Source: an uncultured bacterium (GTDB taxonomy: Bacteria; Patescibacteriota; Minisyncoccia; Minisyncoccales; CAZLLZ01). Taken from it: a DNA stretch of 13,006 bases. Of the stretch, positions 3,574 to 12,907 are shown in pieces (position 1 is the stretch's first letter; each line of letters begins with the position of its first letter). Position numbers and translations under genes: made by a program. Below the pieces are notes generated by a model. The model had not been told where the DNA came from. It was given only the letters and a program-made list of their open reading frames with translations, and did no database searches. The DNA lies in the NCBI GenBank assembly GCA_965552115.1, contig CBEVQU010000020.1:1-13006 (forward strand), in the 5' to 3' direction.

Positions 3574-4389
3574 ATGAGTCTAAACTTCTCTAAAAAATAC
3601 TTATTACTTTGGATAGTTTTGGTTTTGCTTTTTTTTCATTCTGAAACTTTGGCTCTAGAAGTTTCTTGGCCTACTTCCCCAGCAGGAACTAAATTAACAG
3701 ATGACTCAACTCTCCCCGAATTAATAAAATACCTCTATGAGTGGGGAATAAGTATCACAGGAATAATTCTTTTTCTTTCTCTTATCTTAGCTGGTTTTCA
3801 GTATCTGACTTCGGTGGGAGAACCTATAAAACTCCAAGAGGCTAAAGATAGAATCCAATCTTCTCTATTAGGAGTAATTTTTCTTTTAGCATCTTGGATA
3901 ATTCTTAATTTAATAAATCCTGCTCTTACTACCTTTAAAAATGTAGAATTCAATCCTTTAGAATCAGTGGAAGGAGAAATCACCTTAGATATGGAAGACT
4001 TACAAAAGCCTTGTGATTTTGCTTATTTATATGAAAAACCAAACTATGAAGGGGGAAAGAAAAGAATAGAGCCGGGGGAGAAAGTGGAATTAGGAGGTGG
4101 TGAGGAATATCTCTCTATTAAATCTTTTTATAGAGTTGACCAATGCACTCAAGAAGAAATTAATAAAGGAGATTGTATTAAAGAAAACGAAGAATATTAT
4201 AAAAAAGGGGGGGCTTGTACTGTTCAATTATATGCTAAAAAGAAAGTAGGGTGGTGGATTTTTGCTAAAGAGAAAGCTTGTGGAGATAAAATTTCTGAGA
4301 CTCAAGCTGTCCATCCTGACTTCTCAAGAATTTCAGACAGGCAAGTAACCTGTATAAGATTAATAAAACATGAACTCGCTGAATTTTAA
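3574..4389 (+). CDS. Pilin-like (TrbC/VirB2-like) membrane protein of 271 aa with a C-terminal Cys-rich extracellular domain
   Basis: The signal peptide is MSLNFSKKYLLLWIVLVLLFFHSETLA|LEV. The mature N-terminal region has two hydrophobic helices around a charged loop (GISITGIILFLSLILAGFQYLTSVGEPIKLQEAKDRIQSSLLGVIFLLASWIILNLINP), which is the VirB2/TrbC architecture. This region is homologous to the C-terminal hairpin of the 843-aa protein. The C-terminal 150 aa contain 8 Cys. Confidence 0.65.
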   Translation: MSLNFSKKYLLLWIVLVLLFFHSETLALEVSWPTSPAGTKLTDDSTLPELIKYLYEWGISITGIILFLSLILAGFQYLTSVGEPIKLQEAKDRIQSSLLGVIFLLASWIILNLINPALTTFKNVEFNPLESVEGEITLDMEDLQKPCDFAYLYEKPNYEGGKKRIEPGEKVELGGGEEYLSIKSFYRVDQCTQEEINKGDCIKENEEYYKKGGACTVQLYAKKKVGWWIFAKEKACGDKISETQAVHPDFSRISDRQVTCIRLIKHELAEF

Positions 4390-6628
4390 TAAATTACATA
4401 ATAAACTAGCCTTTTTAAAAACCCCTTCTTTCCTATTTTTTGTATTTCTTCTTTTAATTTTATTCATTCCAAAGCCTTCCTCTGCTTTTATCGGAACGGG
4501 AATTTTTGATTATTTTGATACTGCTTTAGAAGGTGTAGAAGAAATTGCAGGTCCTTTAGCAAAAAAAGTAATTAGTATATTCTTTGTGTACGTTATAGGA
4601 CTCATTTTTCTAGGAACTTCTACTGTTCTTCTAGAACAAACTATGAATCCTGAATGGTTATCTATTTATGGAAATCCTCTAGTAGAAAAGGGTTGGAATT
4701 TCACAGTAAATATAGCAAACATGTTTCTTGTATTAGGCTTTATTGTGATAGCTCTAGGGATTATTTTAGGAAGAAGAAGTCTTCAGATTAAAAAAACTCT
4801 TCCTAGATTAATTCTTGTGGCCTTTTTGATAAATTTTAGTTTACTTTTAGTAGGGGCTTTATTAGACATTTCAAATATTCTCTATAATACTTTTTGGAAA
4901 GGAAACGAAAATCTTCCATCGCAAGTAATAGATTTATTAATAGGCAAAGGAGGAAGTGTCCTAACAAATATGATTAGTTGGTTAGGGGCTTTAGCGCTAA
5001 GTTTTTCTATACCCTTCGTAGGTCCCTTTGCTCAAATAGCTCTCGTCTCATATCTAATAGTTGCTTTTCCTACTATGCTCGCGTGGTTTTTTCAAATAAT
5101 TTGCTTTTTTATTGTAGGAGGAATCTTCCTCTTGTACGGTATCTTGTTTGCTTTCAGAGTTTTTATTGTTCAATTATTAGCTATCATTTCTCCTCTAGCT
5201 TTTGTAGCTTGGATTTTTCCTCAAACAGAAAGATATTTCAAAACTTGGTTTAGAATGCTTTTACAATGGATATTTTTAGGTATTTTCCTTATTTTCTTTC
5301 TCTCTTTAGGATTAGCAGGAGCAGTAGCTCTTTCTGAGAAATTAGGAATAGGAGAAAATCCTACTCCTATTCCTGGCTTAAGTTGGTTTAAAGTACATGA
5401 TTATTTCGTGTATTATCTCTTTTTAACTATCTATTTAGGAATAGCAGCTGCTCTTGGAAGAAGAGTTACACCTATGTTTGTAGATCAAGCTTTAGGAATG
5501 TTTAATCAAGCGAAAGGAGCTTTTGTAGGAAGAATAGGAGGAGTTAGTAAATATATAAAAGAGAGGGCGAGAAGATGGGCAGCAGAAAAAGAAAAAGAAT
5601 TTGAAAGAAAGGAAACACCTAAAAAAACAACTGCCAAAATATGGAGGGGGATTAAAAAAGGACTAACAGGAACCATAAAATGGGCCCACAGAATAAGAGG
5701 AACTACAATTGAAGCTGGGTTAGAGAGAGATATTCAAGAGAAAAAAGAAAAATTAAAAGAAAGATTCGGTAATAATGTAGAACAAGCTAGAATTTTTTAT
5801 GGTAAATCTTGGAGAATTCTCCCGCCTACAGATAAAATAGCATTTACTCTTTACGCTGCCGAGGTTAAAGGAGGAAAGGGTTTAGTAAAAATGGGAGAAG
5901 AAGAAGCAAAAGAGGGAATTAATTTAATAGGGAAATCTTATTCAAAAAAACTCTCCGATGTTTTAAAGTATAATGTGAAACTAATGAAAGAAATGCTAGA
6001 AGATATTAGTTACGGAGGAGTATCATTAGATATTTTAGTGCCAGAAAGAGAAAAAGATAAAGATGTTATAGAGCTTATGAAATTAGGATACGAAAAAGCA
6101 GACGCTATTAAAAAAGCTGCTTTTAAAAAAGTTATAGATGACTTAAAATCTAAAGACATTGAGAAACTTACAGATGATACTCTTACTAATCCTGAATTTC
6201 AAGAAGTAACAGCTCTTTTTAAACCTTGGGGATTTATAAGAAAAATTGGAGAAGAATGGGGAGCAGACATTTTAGATAAAATCCAAGAAACTGCAGAAGA
6301 AATAGGATTAGAAAAAATTGCAAAAAGTAATCCTTCCTTTTTAAGAGCTCCTTACACCCCTGGAGGCTCTATTTTTTTAAGAAGGTGGTTTTTGGAAGGA
6401 AGAGAATTAACTCGAAATGATATAGAAGAATTAATCCGAAGAGCCAAAAGAGGAGACGATGAAGAGAAACCACCATCTTCACCGAAACCACCGAAACCCC
6501 CAAAACCACCGCCCAAACCTCCAAGAGGAAGAGCAGGAGTAGGAGTTCCAATTTACTGGACAAAAGAAAAAAAAGAAGAGGAAGAAGAGGAAGAAGAACC
6601 GAGAGGAAGAGTAGGAGTGGGAGTTTAA
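4370..6628 (+). CDS. VirB6/TrbL-like polytopic inner-membrane protein of 752 aa with a long hydrophilic C-terminal domain and a Pro-rich/poly-Glu tail
   Basis: A signal-like N terminus is followed by about 8 predicted TM helices in residues 60-370. There is then a roughly 380-aa charged cytoplasmic domain, ending in PPSSPKPPKPPKPPPKPPRGRAGVGV...EEEEEEEEPRGRVGVGV. This layout is that of Gram-positive VirB6-like proteins such as TcpH/PrgH. The start overlaps the upstream gene by 20 nt, and internal Met codons could be the true start. Confidence 0.55.
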   Translation: MNSLNFNKLHNKLAFLKTPSFLFFVFLLLILFIPKPSSAFIGTGIFDYFDTALEGVEEIAGPLAKKVISIFFVYVIGLIFLGTSTVLLEQTMNPEWLSIYGNPLVEKGWNFTVNIANMFLVLGFIVIALGIILGRRSLQIKKTLPRLILVAFLINFSLLLVGALLDISNILYNTFWKGNENLPSQVIDLLIGKGGSVLTNMISWLGALALSFSIPFVGPFAQIALVSYLIVAFPTMLAWFFQIICFFIVGGIFLLYGILFAFRVFIVQLLAIISPLAFVAWIFPQTERYFKTWFRMLLQWIFLGIFLIFFLSLGLAGAVALSEKLGIGENPTPIPGLSWFKVHDYFVYYLFLTIYLGIAAALGRRVTPMFVDQALGMFNQAKGAFVGRIGGVSKYIKERARRWAAEKEKEFERKETPKKTTAKIWRGIKKGLTGTIKWAHRIRGTTIEAGLERDIQEKKEKLKERFGNNVEQARIFYGKSWRILPPTDKIAFTLYAAEVKGGKGLVKMGEEEAKEGINLIGKSYSKKLSDVLKYNVKLMKEMLEDISYGGVSLDILVPEREKDKDVIELMKLGYEKADAIKKAAFKKVIDDLKSKDIEKLTDDTLTNPEFQEVTALFKPWGFIRKIGEEWGADILDKIQETAEEIGLEKIAKSNPSFLRAPYTPGGSIFLRRWFLEGRELTRNDIEELIRRAKRGDDEEKPPSSPKPPKPPKPPPKPPRGRAGVGVPIYWTKEKKEEEEEEEEPRGRVGVGV
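6476..6625 (+). repeat. Low-complexity coding repeats at the 3' end of the VirB6-like gene. They comprise a 9-nt periodic (ccaccgaaa)n Pro-Pro-Lys tract, a (gaagag)n poly-Glu tract, and a 27-nt imperfect direct repeat (6521-6547 and 6599-6625, 24 of 27 identical).
   Basis: These can be read directly in the sequence: ccaagaggaagagcaggagtaggagtt versus ccgagaggaagagtaggagtgggagtt. They encode RGRAGVGV and RGRVGVGV. Confidence 0.7.
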
Positions 6629-6669: not shown

Positions 6670-7860
6670 TTATTCTTTTAGTTTCTCTTTGATTTCTTCC
6701 ACTTCTTTTTGAAGTTTTGAAAGAGCTTCTTTAACTACTTTCCATTCTCTCTCTGAAAATCTTTCTGGTTCTTTACCAAAAACACCACGTAAAACTTCTT
6801 GTAGTCCAGGAATAGCTTGAACTGCAAGGGAAGCTGCTAGAGGACTCTTTTCTACTGCTTCACAAACTCTTACCAGTTCTCCAGTTCTTCCGAGTGCTTT
6901 TACTGTTTCATAGACTCTCTTTATTCTTTCTTTCTCAGCATCAGCTAAAGTTTCTATTCTCTCTTTTTCTCTCTCTGCTAAATATTTTTTCAATGTAGCC
7001 TCTCTATATTCTTTAGGTGGATTTATAGATCTTATTTCTATCTTTTTTAGTAAAATACCATATTCTTCCTCAAATTCTTTTAATATTTTTAATTTCTTCA
7101 ATCTTTTCTTTAACTCTTCAGCCATACTTTGAGGCTCTGAAATCCATCTCTCATAAGATTTCTGAGTGATAACATCTCTAGCTTCTGCATTACATCTTTG
7201 AATCACTGCTTCCAACCAATTTTGAATTCTAAACAAAGCTTTATAAGGATTGACTACTCTAATTGTATATAGAATCTCTATATTTAAAGGTAATCTATTA
7301 ATATCCTCTGCCTTCTCTATTTTACTATAGTAGACGTCTTCTTTTAGAAGAATATAATCTAAGACTTCCTTCTCATGATGAATAATCTTCCCATCTTCCT
7401 TTATTCCTGTCCAAGTAAAACCATAAATATATATATCTTTTATCGGCCAAAAACCATAGTATCTAAACCCTCCTAAAGGATGGCACTTTTCTTTGTATAT
7501 TTTAGCTCCAGGTGTCCCAAGAGGAACTTTTTTTCCATCTTTCATCGGAATTCCTTCTTTTACTACATTCCACTGTTCATCTAAAGTATATCCTTTCCAT
7601 TGAATTAGTATCTTTATCACTTGGTCTCCTTTTACTACCACCTTCGCTGTTCCTTCTTTTACAAAGGTAAAAAATAAATTGTCTTCTGCTAATCCAAAGT
7701 ATACCCAGGCAAAAAGCCCAATAGGAATGGTTACCCAAAACACTAGTAAAAAGAGTATTTTCCCTAGAGAAAAATCAAAAGCTTTCGAAAGTAGAGACCC
7801 AATATACAGAAGTACTTCTATTCCTACCCATTTTATTAAAATCTTTAAAGAACTAATCAT
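6670..7860 (-). CDS. SPFH/band-7 (stomatin/prohibitin/flotillin/HflK-C family) membrane protein of 396 aa
   Basis: N-terminal TM helices are followed by a core that fits the SPFH pattern (IEILYTIRVVNPYKALFRIQNWLEAVIQRCNAEARDVITQKS...). There is then a coiled-coil tail rich in AEREKERIETLADAEKERIKRV-type repeats, typical of flotillin/YqiK-like proteins. Confidence 0.55.
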   Translation of the reverse strand: MISSLKILIKWVGIEVLLYIGSLLSKAFDFSLGKILFLLVFWVTIPIGLFAWVYFGLAEDNLFFTFVKEGTAKVVVKGDQVIKILIQWKGYTLDEQWNVVKEGIPMKDGKKVPLGTPGAKIYKEKCHPLGGFRYYGFWPIKDIYIYGFTWTGIKEDGKIIHHEKEVLDYILLKEDVYYSKIEKAEDINRLPLNIEILYTIRVVNPYKALFRIQNWLEAVIQRCNAEARDVITQKSYERWISEPQSMAEELKKRLKKLKILKEFEEEYGILLKKIEIRSINPPKEYREATLKKYLAEREKERIETLADAEKERIKRVYETVKALGRTGELVRVCEAVEKSPLAASLAVQAIPGLQEVLRGVFGKEPERFSEREWKVVKEALSKLQKEVEEIKEKLKE

Positions 7861-8332: not shown

Positions 8333-8740
8333 ATGGAATTTCAAGTGCCACAATTTATAGAAAGGGAACCTAAAATAATTGGGCCTTTTACTTTTAAGCA
8401 ATTTTTGTTTTTAGCAATTTGTGGAGGAATCTGTGCTATTTTCTATTTTATTTTTCCTAGATTCATTTTTTATGCTTTAACTGCTTTAGTAATGGGAGGA
8501 GCTATTGGATTAATGGTAGTTAAAATAGAAGGACAACCTATTCCAACACTTTTGAAAAATTTTTTCTTTTTTTCTACTTCTCCTAAGCTCTATTTATGGA
8601 AAAAGAAAGAGATTTCTCCTCCTATCATTAAAGAAGAAAGGAAGATAGAAAAAAAAGAAAAAGAAACTACTTTAAAACTGGGAGAAAAAAGCAGACTTAA
8701 AAATATATTTACTAAAGTTGAACTAAGCCAGAGAAAATGA
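8333..8740 (+). CDS. PrgI-family / VirB3-like small T4SS membrane protein of 135 aa
   Basis: The N terminus MEFQVPQFIEREPKIIGPFTFKQFLFLAICGG... matches the PrgI-family pattern (VP-x-x-I...K-I-x-GP(F/L)T-x-(R/K)Q) and is followed by two TM helices. It lies immediately upstream of the VirB4-like gene, preserving VirB3-VirB4 synteny. Its TGA stop overlaps the next ATG (ATGA), indicating translational coupling. Confidence 0.55.
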   Translation: MEFQVPQFIEREPKIIGPFTFKQFLFLAICGGICAIFYFIFPRFIFYALTALVMGGAIGLMVVKIEGQPIPTLLKNFFFFSTSPKLYLWKKKEISPPIIKEERKIEKKEKETTLKLGEKSRLKNIFTKVELSQRK

Positions 8741-9390
8741 GAAAAAAAATTCTTCCCTCAACTCAACAATTTCTAGAATATAAGCAAATTAAGGAAGGGA
8801 TAATTATTTTAAAAGACAATTCTTTAAGAGGGATTTTAATGGTTTCTTCTTTAAATTTTGCTTTAAAATCAGATGAAGAGCAAAAAGCTATTTTATACCA
8901 ATTCCAAGACTTTCTAAATTCTTTAGATTTTACTTGTCAAATTCTTGTTCAATCTAGAAGATTAAATATCACAGGTTATTTGGAGAAATTAGAAGATTTA
9001 GAAAAAGCTCAACAAAATGAGCTTTTAAAGCTTCAAACTAGAGAATATAGAAATTTTATTAAAGGACTTGTTGAAAAAGGAACTATTATGACAAAAAAAT
9101 TTTTTGTAATTGTCCCCTATTTTCTTTTAGAAGCTAAAGGAGTTATATCTCCTTTAGAAATACTAAAAGGGAAAGCAGAAGAAGAAATTTTAACTGAAGA
9201 AAAGTTTCAAAGGTATAAAGAACAACTTTGGCAAAGAATGGAATATGTTGCTTTAGGTTTAAGAAGATGTGGTTTGGAAGCTTTACCTTTAAATACAGCA
9301 GAAATTATTGAATTGCTTTGGGAATATCATCATCCAAAAGAAGCTGAATTTGGATATTATCCAGAATTACCTCCCGAAATCTTAAAATAA
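8737..9390 (+). CDS. VirB4/TrbE/PrgJ-family ATPase, N-terminal domain ORF of 217 aa, ending at an in-frame TAA
   Basis: ...GIIILKDNSLRGILMVSSLNFALKSDEEQKAILYQFQDFLNSLDFTCQILVQSRRLNI... fits the VirB4/TcpF/PrgJ N-terminal pattern (dG-s-l-x-il-x-v-x-g-x-N-x-x-L-x-seeE-x-x-x-i...fLnsL-x-x-x-x-Qi). It is in the same frame as the following ATPase ORF, separated from it only by TAA at 9388-9390. Confidence 0.6.
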   Translation: MRKKILPSTQQFLEYKQIKEGIIILKDNSLRGILMVSSLNFALKSDEEQKAILYQFQDFLNSLDFTCQILVQSRRLNITGYLEKLEDLEKAQQNELLKLQTREYRNFIKGLVEKGTIMTKKFFVIVPYFLLEAKGVISPLEILKGKAEEEILTEEKFQRYKEQLWQRMEYVALGLRRCGLEALPLNTAEIIELLWEYHHPKEAEFGYYPELPPEILK

Positions 9391-9393
9391 ATT

Positions 9394-11196
9394 ATGTTTA
9401 AAATTTTTAAAAAAAGAAAGAAAAAAGAATTAGAAAAAGAAAAATTATTTGAAGAAACAGTCTTGACTAGTAAAGATATTGTTGCTCCTCCATCTTTAGA
9501 AGTAAAGCCAAATTATTTAAAAATAGGTGAAAGATTAGCTAAAACTTTCTTTGTTTTCTCTTTTCCTAGATATTTAGGAATGGTTTGGACTTCCCCTTTA
9601 ATCAACTTGGATATCCCAATGGATATTTCTTTTTTTATTCATCCTCTTCCAACAGGAGAATTATTAAAGAAACTAAGAAAAAGAGTAACAGAACTCGAAG
9701 CTGAGATAGCAGAAAGAGAAGAAAAAGGACTTATAAGAGAGCCTGCTTTAGAGGTAGCTTATAGAGATTTAGAGCTTTTGAGAGAGAGGCTTCAAACTGC
9801 CCAAGAAAGAATGTTCAAATTAGGAGTTTATCTAACTGTCTATGCAGATACAGAAAAAGAAATGAGAGAATATGAGACAACTTTAAGGGAAATTTTTGAG
9901 GCAAGGTTAATTTATTTAAAACCTGCTCTTTATCAGCAAAAAGAAGGATTCATCTCTTGTCTGCCTTATGGACAAGATAAACTTTTAGTTCACACTACAA
10001 TGAATACAATGCCTCTCTCTTCTTGTTTTCCTTTTGTCTCTTTCGATTTAAGCTCAAATGAAGGAATATTGTATGGAATAAATTTACACAACAACTCTTT
10101 AGTTTTATTTGATAGATTTTCTTTAGAAAATGCTAATGAGGTTGTCTTTGGAGTCGCAGGAGGAGGAAAATCATATGCTATAAAGTTAGAAATTTTAAGA
10201 TATTTGATGGAAGGAGTAGATGTGATCGTAATTGACCCTGAAAATGAATATAAAACATTATGTGAAGCAGTAGGAGGGTCCTTTTTTAAAATCTCTCTTA
10301 CTTCTCCAAACCATATCAACCCTTTAGATCTACCTTCTCCAAGAGAAGACGAAGACCCAAAAGATGTCTTAAGATCAAATATCATAAATTTAGTTGGTCT
10401 TTTAAGAATAATGCTAGGAGGTCTAACTCCAGAAGAAGATGCTATTGTAGATAGAGCTTTAACTGAAACTTATGCAGCGAGAGATATCACTCCACAATCC
10501 GACCCTTCTACTTGGAAAGAGAACATTCCTCTTTTGGAAGATTTAGAATCTGTTTTAGAAACAATGGAAGGAGCTGAATCTTTAGTTAGAAGATTAAGGA
10601 AATTTACAAAAGGAACTTATGCTGATTTCTTTAACAACCCCACAAACATCTCAATGGATAAAAATTTTGTTGTCTTTGGAATTAGAGATATGGAAGAAGA
10701 ACTAAGACCAATGGCAATGTTTTTAATTATGAGATACATTTGGAATACTATAAGATCGAAACTTAAAAAAAGAATCTTAGTAGTGGACGAAGCCTGGTGG
10801 ATAATGAAATCAGAAGATGGAGCATCTTTTTTGTATGGAATATGTAAAAGAGCTAGGAAATATTGGCTTGGAGTAACAACTATTACCCAAGATGTAATAG
10901 ACTTTATGAAATCTGTCTATGGGCAACCTATTATTACAAACTCTGCCCTTTGTCTTCTTCTAAAACAAAGTCCTGCTACAATTGATATAGTCAAAAAAAC
11001 CTTTAATCTAACAGAAGAAGAAAAGTATATGCTTTTGGAAGCTGAAGTAGGAGAAGGTTTGTTTTTTGCTGGAAGAAAACACGTGGCTATAAAAGTTGTA
11101 GCTTCTTATACAGAAGATCAAATAATTACTACTTCCCCTGAAGAAATAATAAGAATTCGAAAAAGAAAAAAAGAATTAGAGGAAAATCTCCCTTAA
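9394..11196 (+). CDS. VirB4/TrbE/CagE-family T4SS ATPase, C-terminal ATPase portion of 600 aa
   Basis: Walker A is VVFGVAGGGKSYA. Walker B is ILVVDEAWWIM, and the hhhhDEAW form is a VirB4 hallmark. The LGVTTITQDVIDF motif is also present. Together with the upstream ORF the length is about 818 aa, typical for VirB4. Confidence 0.8.
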   Translation: MFKIFKKRKKKELEKEKLFEETVLTSKDIVAPPSLEVKPNYLKIGERLAKTFFVFSFPRYLGMVWTSPLINLDIPMDISFFIHPLPTGELLKKLRKRVTELEAEIAEREEKGLIREPALEVAYRDLELLRERLQTAQERMFKLGVYLTVYADTEKEMREYETTLREIFEARLIYLKPALYQQKEGFISCLPYGQDKLLVHTTMNTMPLSSCFPFVSFDLSSNEGILYGINLHNNSLVLFDRFSLENANEVVFGVAGGGKSYAIKLEILRYLMEGVDVIVIDPENEYKTLCEAVGGSFFKISLTSPNHINPLDLPSPREDEDPKDVLRSNIINLVGLLRIMLGGLTPEEDAIVDRALTETYAARDITPQSDPSTWKENIPLLEDLESVLETMEGAESLVRRLRKFTKGTYADFFNNPTNISMDKNFVVFGIRDMEEELRPMAMFLIMRYIWNTIRSKLKKRILVVDEAWWIMKSEDGASFLYGICKRARKYWLGVTTITQDVIDFMKSVYGQPIITNSALCLLLKQSPATIDIVKKTFNLTEEEKYMLLEAEVGEGLFFAGRKHVAIKVVASYTEDQIITTSPEEIIRIRKRKKELEENLP

Positions 11197-11651
11197 GGAT
11201 AAGGTTTTATCACCACTCTTCTTTTGGGTTCTCTCCCTACGCTTTGAGTAGTAACATCTCCCCTTTCTGCTAACTCTAAATGAATGATTCTTCTTTCATA
11301 AGGAGGCATAGGGGGTAAAATTTCCTCCTTTTTTGTTAAAGAAACTTTATCTGCTAAATTTTTAGCTAACTCTTTTAGATATTTTATTTTATTTTGTTTG
11401 TAATTGTTAATATCAACATCTATAAAAAAATGGTCTTTGATCTTTCTTTTCAAAATCGCTTTCAATAAATGCTGAATAGAAAATAAACTCTTTCCATTTT
11501 CTCCAATTAAAATTTGAGGCTCTTTTGATTCAACTTTTAAAAAAATAGTCTCTTGTTTTGGAGGAAGAAAAGTTATTTTTACAAAAGGATCTATAAAGTT
11601 AAAAAACTCATTTGTGATTTTTTTTATTTTTTCAAAATCTTCTTTGGTCAT
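11193..11651 (-). CDS. jag: Jag/KhpB RNA-binding protein with KH and R3H domains
   Basis: The KH-like segment ILIGENGKSLFSIQHLLKAIL carries the GxxG loop. The C-terminal R3H motif is ERRIIHLELAERGDVTTQSVGREPKRRVVIKP. The gene sits downstream of yidC as in the conserved operon. Confidence 0.8.
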   Translation of the reverse strand: MTKEDFEKIKKITNEFFNFIDPFVKITFLPPKQETIFLKVESKEPQILIGENGKSLFSIQHLLKAILKRKIKDHFFIDVDINNYKQNKIKYLKELAKNLADKVSLTKKEEILPPMPPYERRIIHLELAERGDVTTQSVGREPKRRVVIKPYP

Positions 11652-11660
11652 TTTCTTTTT

Positions 11661-12353
11661 TTATTTTGATAAAAGATAATATTGGAAAATGGTGAAAAAA
11701 GTGCTTGTTATCCAATATAAAGCGACAGCTGCCGGAATTTTTAAAAGAATAAGAAAGGTAAAAAAAGGAAAAAAATATAACATTTGTTTTTGAAAAACTT
11801 GAGAAATTTCTTTTTCTTTCTCTAAAGAAAACTGGGAAGTTTGTCTTGTTTGAAAATATTGAGAAATTCCAGCTATTAAAGCTAAAAAAATACTAGGCTT
11901 TGAAAGATCCAACAAACCTAAAAAAAGAGGAGGAATTTCCTTTATTTGAGGGACAAAAGAATATAAATTTATCATAGATTGAGGAGAAATACCTCCCCAA
12001 AAAACTTTTAAAAGAGCAATTAAAATAGGAAGTTGAATTAAGAGAGGTAAGCATCCTGAAAATGGATTAATTTTTTCTTTTTTATATAATTCCATTAAAG
12101 CTTTAGCTTGTTTTTCTTTTTGGTCTTTATATTTTTTCTGAATTTCTCTTATCTTTGGCTGAAGCTCTGACATTTTCTTTTGAGATATTAAAGATTTAAG
12201 AGTGATTGGATAGAGAATAATTTTTACTATTAAAGTCAAAGCAATAATTGAAATTCCTAGATCATGAGGAGGAAGAAAATAATAAATAATTATAAGTAAA
12301 TTAAAAAGAGGTTTATATAAAATTGTGTAAAATAAAAAGGTAAAAATCTCCAT
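11661..12353 (-). CDS. yidC: Membrane protein insertase YidC (short Gram-positive/CPR-type form, 230 aa)
   Basis: LQPKIREIQKKYKDQKEKQAKALMELYKKEKINPFSGCLPLLIQLPILIALLKVF matches the YidC/Oxa1 core (MQ-x-lqPe...iqeKYk......qEmm-x-LYk-e-x-gvNP-x-x-GClP-x-LiQmPi). The protein has multiple TM helices. Confidence 0.85.
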   Translation of the reverse strand: MEIFTFLFYTILYKPLFNLLIIIYYFLPPHDLGISIIALTLIVKIILYPITLKSLISQKKMSELQPKIREIQKKYKDQKEKQAKALMELYKKEKINPFSGCLPLLIQLPILIALLKVFWGGISPQSMINLYSFVPQIKEIPPLFLGLLDLSKPSIFLALIAGISQYFQTRQTSQFSLEKEKEISQVFQKQMLYFFPFFTFLILLKIPAAVALYWITSTFFTIFQYYLLSK

Positions 12354-12354
12354 A

Positions 12355-12564
12355 TTAAGGTAAATCTACCCCTCCTTTAGAAAAAGGGTGGCATCTTAAA
12401 ATTCTTTTCAAAATTAAAAAAACGGCCTTTCTTTTATTATATTTTTTCAAAGCTAAGATAGAATATTCAGAACAAGAAGGATAAAATCTGCAGTGTTTTC
12501 CTAAAAAAGGAGAAATAAATAACTGATATTTTCTTAAAATGGAAATTAAAAATTTATTTTTCAT
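12355..12564 (-). CDS. yidD: Membrane protein insertion efficiency factor YidD
   Basis: The sequence ISPFLGKHCRFYPSCSEYSILALKKYN...LKRILRCHPFSKGGVDLP carries the canonical YidD motifs (CRF-x-PSCS-x-Y, RCHP, GG-x-D-x-P). It lies between rnpA and yidC as expected. Confidence 0.9.
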   Translation of the reverse strand: MKNKFLISILRKYQLFISPFLGKHCRFYPSCSEYSILALKKYNKRKAVFLILKRILRCHPFSKGGVDLP

Positions 12565-12907
12565 TTTTAAAAATTTTCATTTTTCTAAAAAGGAACTCAA
12601 CCATCTTTTCTATTTCCTGATAATTTTTCTCCTCCAATCCAGGTAAAGCAATGAAAATTCCATCTATGCCTTTTTTTAAAAAAGGAATTTTTTTTCTCAC
12701 AATTTCTCTCAGTCTTCTTCTGACTTTATTTCGAACTGTCGCTTTTTTAGATACTTTTTGAGAAACTATAAAAGCAAACCGACAATCTTCATCCCCTCTC
12801 TGATTAAAGACTTTTAGGACTAAATAATCTTTTTTCGCTCCTTTCCCTTTCTTAAAAACCCTCTCGAAATCTTTTTTCTTTTTTAATCTATTCTTTTTAG
12901 GGAGCAT
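12554..12907 (-). CDS. rnpA: Ribonuclease P protein component RnpA
   Basis: The basic 117-aa protein carries the RNR-like motif VSKKATVRNKVRRRLRE. It follows rpmH on the same strand in the classic rpmH-rnpA arrangement. Confidence 0.85.
   Translation of the reverse strand: MLPKKNRLKKKKDFERVFKKGKGAKKDYLVLKVFNQRGDEDCRFAFIVSQKVSKKATVRNKVRRRLREIVRKKIPFLKKGIDGIFIALPGLEEKNYQEIEKMVEFLFRKMKIFKNEK

Follow-up and report, generated by a model that had tools for sequence, protein, structure and literature searches.

Two adjacent open reading frames (ORFs), ORF1 and ORF2, lie in a 13,006-nucleotide (nt) stretch of DNA (hereafter, the window) from an uncultured bacterium of the Patescibacteriota (contig CBEVQU010000020.1 of assembly GCA_965552115.1), where they share a reading frame that is interrupted by a single stop codon. 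We conclude, with a probability of about 0.93, that they are two functional chromosomal genes of a type IV secretion system (T4SS) of Nealsonbacteria-like Patescibacteria, and that together they are equivalent to a single VirB4 protein of approximately 790 amino acids (aa). ORF1 is a TrsD/TraC-like module that stands for the opening ~200 residues of the VirB4 N-terminal domain, and ORF2 is the remainder of VirB4, including the ATPase with its Walker A and Walker B motifs. The reading frame that they share in the window is coincidental. The two-gene TrsD–VirB4 arrangement is already known; the window is a further instance of it and adds no new principle.

Conservation of the pair as two genes

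8737..9390, + strand: ORF1, 217 aa, from ATG 8737 to TAA 9388-9390
9388..9396, + strand: junction TAA-ATT-ATG (ORF1 stop, 3-nt spacer at 9391-9393, ORF2 start), read from the sequence
9394..11196, + strand: ORF2, 600 aa, from ATG 9394 to the stop at 11194-11196

An earlier reading of the window, made from its letters alone, had given these coordinates, the shared frame (9394-8737 = 657 = 3x219) and the ATT spacer exactly, and had correctly placed the TAA outside any homopolymer (aaaa TAA att atg). This sequence-only reading had left three accounts of the layout standing: a genuine two-gene VirB4, which it called rare, a pseudogenization, and a sequencing or assembly error. The junction region contains no run of N, and the window is AT-rich, with a guanine–cytosine content of 27–36%. 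A ribosome-binding site ahead of the ATG at 9394 had been put forward as informative; we found no Shine–Dalgarno motif or other ribosome-binding site upstream of this codon. Because a Shine–Dalgarno motif is missing from almost every gene in the window, its absence at 9394 does not discriminate between the accounts. When the window was scanned for Rfam families and tRNAs, there was no match, and the junction showed neither a conserved RNA structure nor an Rfam family.

The exact ORF2 protein is present on nine contigs. The five that are listed were each assembled from a different sample (ENA ERZ26872903, NCBI GCA_964514325.1 and Logan SRR7051320, SRR22214787 and SRR22214801), and all five assemblies carry a 217-aa gene matching PF26593, the same TAA and the 600-aa gene. 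Thus, the recurrence of the identical pair and stop codon in five independent assemblies excludes an assembly error.

For related species, we compared the junction at 78 loci, each from a distinct GTDB species. The two genes were separate at 78/78 of these loci, and relatives at 60–91% identity had two genes in every case. Neighbouring genes fall into a common frame by chance one third of the time; among the 78 loci, the frame of ORF2 was offset from that of ORF1 by 0 in 23, by 1 in 27 and by 2 in 28. This even spread shows that the shared frame in the window is coincidental, and it excludes a conserved readthrough mechanism. The gap between the genes had a median of 7 nt and extremes of -4 and 476 nt, and the genes overlapped at nine of the 78 loci, eight times by ATGA (-4 nt) and once by TAATG (1 nt). 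The stop codon of ORF1 was TAA at 52 loci, TGA at 17 and TAG at 9.

Searches with ORF1 returned 5,671 homologues at E<=1e-3, and the best 120 of these were all stand-alone proteins of 183–247 aa, nearly all of 210–217 aa, with 64–100% identity. A profile of the ORF1 family, searched against 1.84 billion cluster representatives, matched 2,910 clusters (50% identity); among the best 150 of these clusters, 149 fell below 600 aa, and the median length was 225 aa. The best 120 homologues of ORF2 were likewise uniform in size, all of them having 591–614 aa. By name, the closest homologues belong to Nealsonbacteria, Paceibacterota or Patescibacteria. Homologue sizes, the 78/78 two-gene loci and the five assemblies together select the genuine two-gene VirB4 from the three accounts. 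Its supposed rarity was mistaken, as the two-gene state is predominant in the lineage and already published. Pseudogenization is excluded by stand-alone homologues that share an end point, an ATPase that is kept at ~600 aa and the conservation of the two-gene arrangement in all 78 related species, and the third account fails on the identical junction, TAA included, in all five assemblies.

The spacer itself varies among relatives. In a Staskawiczbacteria relative (L063 3643-4122), the two genes are separated by 476 nt, compared with the 7-nt median. Four related species have a conserved hairpin, AGCACATAA-(loop)-TTATGTKCT, in the spacer that separates their trsD-like gene from virB4 (L008 3640-3661, L020 3633-3654, L051 3654-3675 and L053 1248-1269). 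The hairpin occurs nowhere else in those four ~6-kb loci and is not present in the window. It may act as a small terminator or attenuator, or it may be a repeat element.

The break falls inside the VirB4 N-terminal domain

8737..9390, + strand: ORF1, stand-alone TrsD/TraC-like protein, first part of the VirB4 N-terminal domain (PF26593, NCBIfam, fold match and alignment to the fused protein P0353, described below)
9394..10059, + strand: ORF2 aa 1-222, basic N-terminal tail and second part of the VirB4 N-terminal domain (TraC_F_IV, conju_CD1110 and P0353 alignment)
10060..11196, + strand: ORF2 aa 223-600, VirB4 C-terminal ATPase domain (4AG5, P-loop_TraG and Walker motifs)

ORF1 matched VirB4 profiles at their N-terminal ends: positions 1-116 of 752 in NCBIfam conju_CD1110 (NF045971), 103-233 of 894 in VirB4_plasma (VirB4 of Mycoplasma integrative and conjugative elements), 7-80 of 792 in VirB4_CagE and 13-174 of 375 in TraC_F_IV. 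The matches are confined to these ends, and ORF1 corresponds to the start of the VirB4 N-terminal region only. PF26593, named 'TraC-like', was a precomputed match on the identical 217-aa gene in the five assemblies and on all 120 best homologues. TrsD/TraD (NF041427) matched weakly (profile 28-145 of 201, 19.1 bits, E 8.9e-4), under its 200-bit cutoff. An alignment of 22 ORF1 sequences had 78 invariant columns, a common C-terminal end and a mean column identity of 75%. We also modelled ORF1 with AlphaFold2 (predicted local distance difference test (pLDDT) of 75.7) and compared the model with the PDB. The top 14 matches were all TrwK/VirB4 chains of R388, with probabilities of 0.90–1.0, and the next matches had probabilities of <=0.1. 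This fold-level search was used in place of a search of PDB sequences with the ORF1-alignment profile, which returned spurious Speedy-protein matches alone (E ~0.02).

ORF2 passed the cutoff of the CD1110-family VirB4-like conjugal ATPases (NF045971; 377.1 bits versus 325, E 1.7e-112), matching profile positions 166-734 of 752. The ~120–165 N-terminal profile positions that this family has on the ATPase polypeptide are not on ORF2, as positions 1-116 fall on ORF1. ORF2 aa 223-579 matched the VirB4 C-terminal domain sequence of PDB 4AG5 (E 6.8e-46), and P-loop_TraG matched ORF2 with an E of 4.9e-28. The Walker A motif GVAGGGKS occupies aa 253-260 (nt 10150-10173) and the Walker B motif ILVVDE aa 461-466 (nt 10774-10791); G256, G258, K259, S260, D465 and E466 were invariant in an alignment of 22 homologues, which had a mean column identity of 82%. 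ORF2 aa 115-192 still matched the end of TraC_F_IV (297-373 of 375), which places the break inside the VirB4 N-terminal region and not at the boundary between the N-domain and the ATPase. The sequence-only reading was thus correct that ORF1 resembles the VirB4 N-terminal domain for the first part of that domain, but the rest sits in ORF2; with the N-terminal domain delimited as in Pfam and NCBIfam, the break does not divide an N-domain ORF from an ATPase ORF.

About a fifth of the best TrsD-like family clusters (31 of 150; for example, P0262-P0277 and P0322) are longer than the rest, at 300–443 aa. P0271 and P0322 have a low-complexity C-terminal extension rich in Pro, Gln, Thr and Ala after the conserved ...YNP domain end, and several others are similar in their last 30 residues.

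Fused forms of the same module

One of the 150 best cluster representatives, P0353 (797 aa), is a single fused protein, encoded at the syntenic site of another Patescibacteria genome in the order PrgI, fused gene, jag, yidC, rnpA, dnaA and dnaN. ORF1 aa 9-204 aligned to P0353 aa 8-213 with 42% identity, and ORF2 aa 23-595 aligned to P0353 aa 227-797 with 58% identity. ORF1 and ORF2 therefore tile P0353 with a 13-residue gap, and the split stands in place of a 13-residue linker. The fused clade is populous: among 120 best matches, 118 clusters had 775–807 aa at 59–100% identity, and many are named Candidatus Colwellbacteria. This clade (proteins P0391-P0509, and L086 544-2937 in NCBI GCA_964615945.1) has the fused gene at the same origin-proximal locus as the pair in the window. 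Split and fused architectures coexist within Patescibacteria.

The split proteins have termini of their own that are not in the fused form, namely an ORF1 tail, FGYYPELPPEILK (also given as GYYPELPPEILK), and a basic ORF2 head, MFKIFKKRKKK... (MFKIFKKRKKKELEKEKLFEET). We considered the tail motif GYYPE[ILV]PPE as a universal docking peptide that replaces the covalent linker and rejected this idea, as the motif was present in three of the 150 clusters and in none of the 118 fused proteins, which marks a single-clade trait. Two 600-aa members of the fused clade, P0409 and P0505, were considered as recent fissions and proved to be artefacts of 100-N scaffold gaps. At the corresponding loci (L089 and L090; GCA_964368705.1 and GCA_964474545.1), a 100-N gap lies within the N-terminal region, and N-terminal fragments are found upstream in another frame.

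Alternative explanations

One alternative is that ORF1 encodes an accessory T4SS protein, such as an adaptor or a regulator, that is independent of VirB4, and not a detached subdomain that reassembles with ORF2. The long low-complexity C-terminal extensions of many family members, which reach ~440 aa, would suit such a role, as would the Gracilibacteria TrsD homologues that are unlinked to virB4 (PMC12102498) and an actinomycete plasmid on which the module is fused to a PrgI/VirB3-like protein and not to the ATPase. By contrast, the module is collinear with the N terminus of fused VirB4 proteins, the fold of the ORF1 model matches VirB4, and its adjacency to virB4 is tight and conserved. Moreover, a whole clade has the module covalently fused to the ATPase at the same locus. 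We consider an independent accessory role improbable.

Several points weigh against the reading of ORF1 and ORF2 as a two-gene VirB4. The sequence link to staphylococcal TraD/TrsD is weak, at 19 bits versus 200 (hhalign E 0.024, probability 2%). The fold match of ORF1 is modest (TMq of 0.47 at best, E 2e-3), with the aligned TrwK residues not reported by the tool, and the AlphaFold2 model of ORF2 was unusable (pLDDT of 46.6), having been built from a shallow alignment with rows that were all >73% identical. The 78 loci were retrieved with close-clade motifs and thus form a biased census; unbiased support comes from the best 120 homologues and the 2,910-cluster search. Finally, the physical association of ORF1 with ORF2 and their translational coupling are features that we infer, partly by analogy.

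Programmed readthrough or recoding at the TAA at 9388 would produce some fused 818-aa VirB4 beside both separate products. The in-frame layout, with no further stop before the ATG, would permit this. However, two thirds of the relatives have the genes out of frame, several of the in-frame relatives have extra stops in the spacer, and neither an RNA structure that is conserved nor an Rfam family lies at the junction. TAA followed by A is also not known as a leaky context. On this evidence, recoding at the junction is very improbable.

Still less credible is a recent nonsense mutation that turned a single virB4 of ~818 codons into a pseudogene. This explanation draws on the two ORFs being in one frame and separated by TAA ATT alone, and on the ~790-aa fused versions in other Patescibacteria. 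However, the position of the stop is kept in thousands of stand-alone homologues, and the 78/78 related species with two genes have them in all three relative frames. Both products are strongly constrained, as judged from their mean column identities of 75% and 82%, and the Walker motifs are intact. The split proteins also have their own termini, which the fused form is missing. Neither an uninterrupted ORF in close relatives nor relaxed constraint, as expected for a pseudogene, was found. A false stop from a sequencing or assembly error is equally negligible: despite the in-frame layout and the artefacts known in this family (L089 and L090, with their 100-N scaffold gaps), five assemblies from different samples and pipelines have the same 217-aa and 600-aa genes and TAA, at a site that has no N run and lies outside a homopolymer.

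The T4SS locus and a proposed mechanism

66-371: C terminus of KsgA (Pfam)
332-2863, + strand: pilin-like protein, 843 aa, cysteine-rich and secreted (weak PF18895 match, E 4.8e-4, in the last ~70 residues)
3574..4389, + strand: T4SS pilin-like (VirB2-like) protein, 271 aa (PF18895 T4SS_pilin, E 1.6e-7, 31.7 bits versus a cutoff of 26.6)
4370..6628, + strand: VirB6/TrbL-like polytopic membrane protein, 752 aa (PF04610 TrbL, E 2e-4, below the cutoff)
6670-7860, - strand: SPFH/Band-7 protein
8333..8740, + strand: PrgI-family (VirB3-like) small membrane protein, 135 aa (PF12666 PrgI, E 1.5e-7, 32.3 bits versus a cutoff of 27)
11193..12907, - strand: convergent housekeeping block of jag (R3H/KH), yidC, yidD and rnpA (Pfam)

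As in other Patescibacteria T4SSs, genes for VirB4, a TrsD-like protein, a PrgI/VirB3-like protein, a VirB6-like protein (sub-threshold) and VirB2-like pilins are found together, and the locus adjoins ksgA, rnpA and dnaA. The dnaA gene lies just past rnpA, outside the window, in longer assemblies of the same genome (L001 and L002). Because dnaA is directly beyond rnpA, the T4SS locus is origin-proximal. The PrgI-like gene is upstream of the pair also in the assemblies L001, L002 and L004, and in the window its TGA stop codon (8738-8740) shares bases with the start codon of ORF1, in the form ATGA (8737-8740).

This overlap and the 3-nt gap between ORF1 and ORF2 suggest co-transcription and coupled translation. 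Given general operon biology, the PrgI/VirB3-like gene, ORF1 and ORF2 would be co-transcribed and translationally coupled. In R388 structures, the N-domain of VirB4 holds VirB3. By analogy with this pair, the ORF1 protein would probably dock non-covalently onto the N-terminal part of the hexameric ORF2 ATPase and bridge ORF2 to the PrgI/VirB3-like membrane protein, which would rebuild a VirB4-like motor at the membrane.

The 332-2863 product resembles a VirB2-like pilin fusion of very large size, whose extracellular part is repeated and contains Cys and Trp. The last ~60 aa of the VirB6/TrbL-like protein (4370-6628) form a low-complexity tail that contains PPKPPKPPKPPPKPP, a run of Glu residues and two copies of a PRGR[AV]GVGV motif. 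The SPFH/Band-7 gene lies on the opposite strand amid the T4SS cluster and is present also in a 530-kb assembly (L001).

Implications for annotation and function

The finding bears chiefly on annotation: where neighbouring ORFs of a Patescibacteria T4SS locus lie in one frame, they should be neither flagged as a disrupted virB4 nor merged into one, and the 217-aa gene should be named a TrsD/TraC-like VirB4 N-terminal module. Patescibacteria are reported to depend on this T4SS for their epibiotic lifestyle; an essential role in epibiotic growth, or in macromolecule import and export, is known only for Southlakia epibionticum, from the transposon sequencing cited in PMC12102498. A motor made of two polypeptides in most lineages, versus one in others, amounts to a natural experiment on the coupling of ATPase and VirB3 by the VirB4 N-domain.

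Comparison with known systems

The closest known system is the published TrsD–VirB4 pair of Patescibacteria. In the survey of Patescibacteria T4SSs, which are MPF_FATA-related, by Quinonero-Coronel et al. 2025 (PMC12102498), TrsD is described as remotely homologous to the VirB4 N terminus and as the most abundant T4SS component of these bacteria, with 2,272 homologues, 1,664 of them associated with virB4. TrsD co-occurs with VirB4, PrgI/VirB3, VirB6 and VirB2-like pilins, and the T4SS clusters lie near dnaA, dnaN, rnpA, ksgA and rpmH (PMC12102498). The TrsD homologue of Southlakia epibionticum was listed as essential by transposon sequencing (Wang et al. 2023, as cited in PMC12102498). A 2025 review (PMC12857230) also covers Patescibacteria T4SSs. 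The term 'TrsD' is absent from the main text of Guglielmini et al. 2014 (PMC4027160), in which we sought to verify the remote homology; the statement therefore rests on PMC12102498 and on the profile results of this analysis. The window resembles the published pair in its components, its site beside ksgA, rnpA and dnaA and its lineage. There is no substantive difference, as the in-frame TAA-ATT-ATG is a local coincidence.

Single-chain VirB4-like ATPases (CD1110 NF045971, the P0353 clade and TrwK/VirB4 of R388) are similar in that the whole protein is tiled by ORF1 and ORF2, ORF2 scores above the CD1110 cutoff, and the ATPase domain matches 4AG5 and TrwK. They differ in that the first ~200 residues form a separate polypeptide in the window, whereas the fused form has a 13-residue linker.

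Staphylococcal conjugative plasmids of the pGO1/pSK41 type have the same gene order; pGO1 is given as a prototype in PMC12102498. A Staphylococcus aureus plasmid of this type has, in order, a 135-aa gene, traD (227 aa) and a DUF87 ATPase (670 aa), compared with 135, 217 and 600 aa in the window. The succession of the PrgI/VirB3-like gene, ORF1 and ORF2 mirrors traC-traD-traE, and the weak alignments are collinear. By contrast, the staphylococcal genes serve plasmid conjugation and come with a relaxase, whereas the Patescibacteria system is chromosomal, origin-proximal and mostly without a relaxase (PMC12102498).

A third state of the module is found on an actinomycete plasmid, from Embleya sp. 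(NZ_CP108778.1; PrgI-family/SCO6880-like). There, a 349-aa 'PrgI family protein' (L088 865-1911) contains the TrsD-like module in its aa 143-291 (hhalign probability 95%, E 3.4e-8), and the ATPase, which has 643 aa and 36% identity to ORF2, is encoded separately, two genes downstream. In the window, the module is instead free between the PrgI-like gene and the ATPase. NCBIfam SCO6880_fam gave weak matches to the PrgI-like protein of the window and to ORF2 aa 79-194.

The same joint is thus open in several monoderm-type systems: the module is free in the window and in most Patescibacteria, fused to the ATPase in the Colwellbacteria-type form and fused to the VirB3/PrgI-like membrane protein on actinomycete plasmids. 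Plasmids of the pGO1 type have the free layout too, but the sequence link to their TraD is weak. Only this comparison of the three states offers a mildly novel angle. It is possible, although we regard it as unlikely, that the boundary after the first ~200 residues of VirB4 has been mobile in the evolution of monoderm-type T4SSs. If the free module lets the cell set the stoichiometry of the membrane-anchor module apart from that of the ATPase hexamers, the split would serve the regulation or assembly of the essential Patescibacteria T4SS and would not be a neutral fission.

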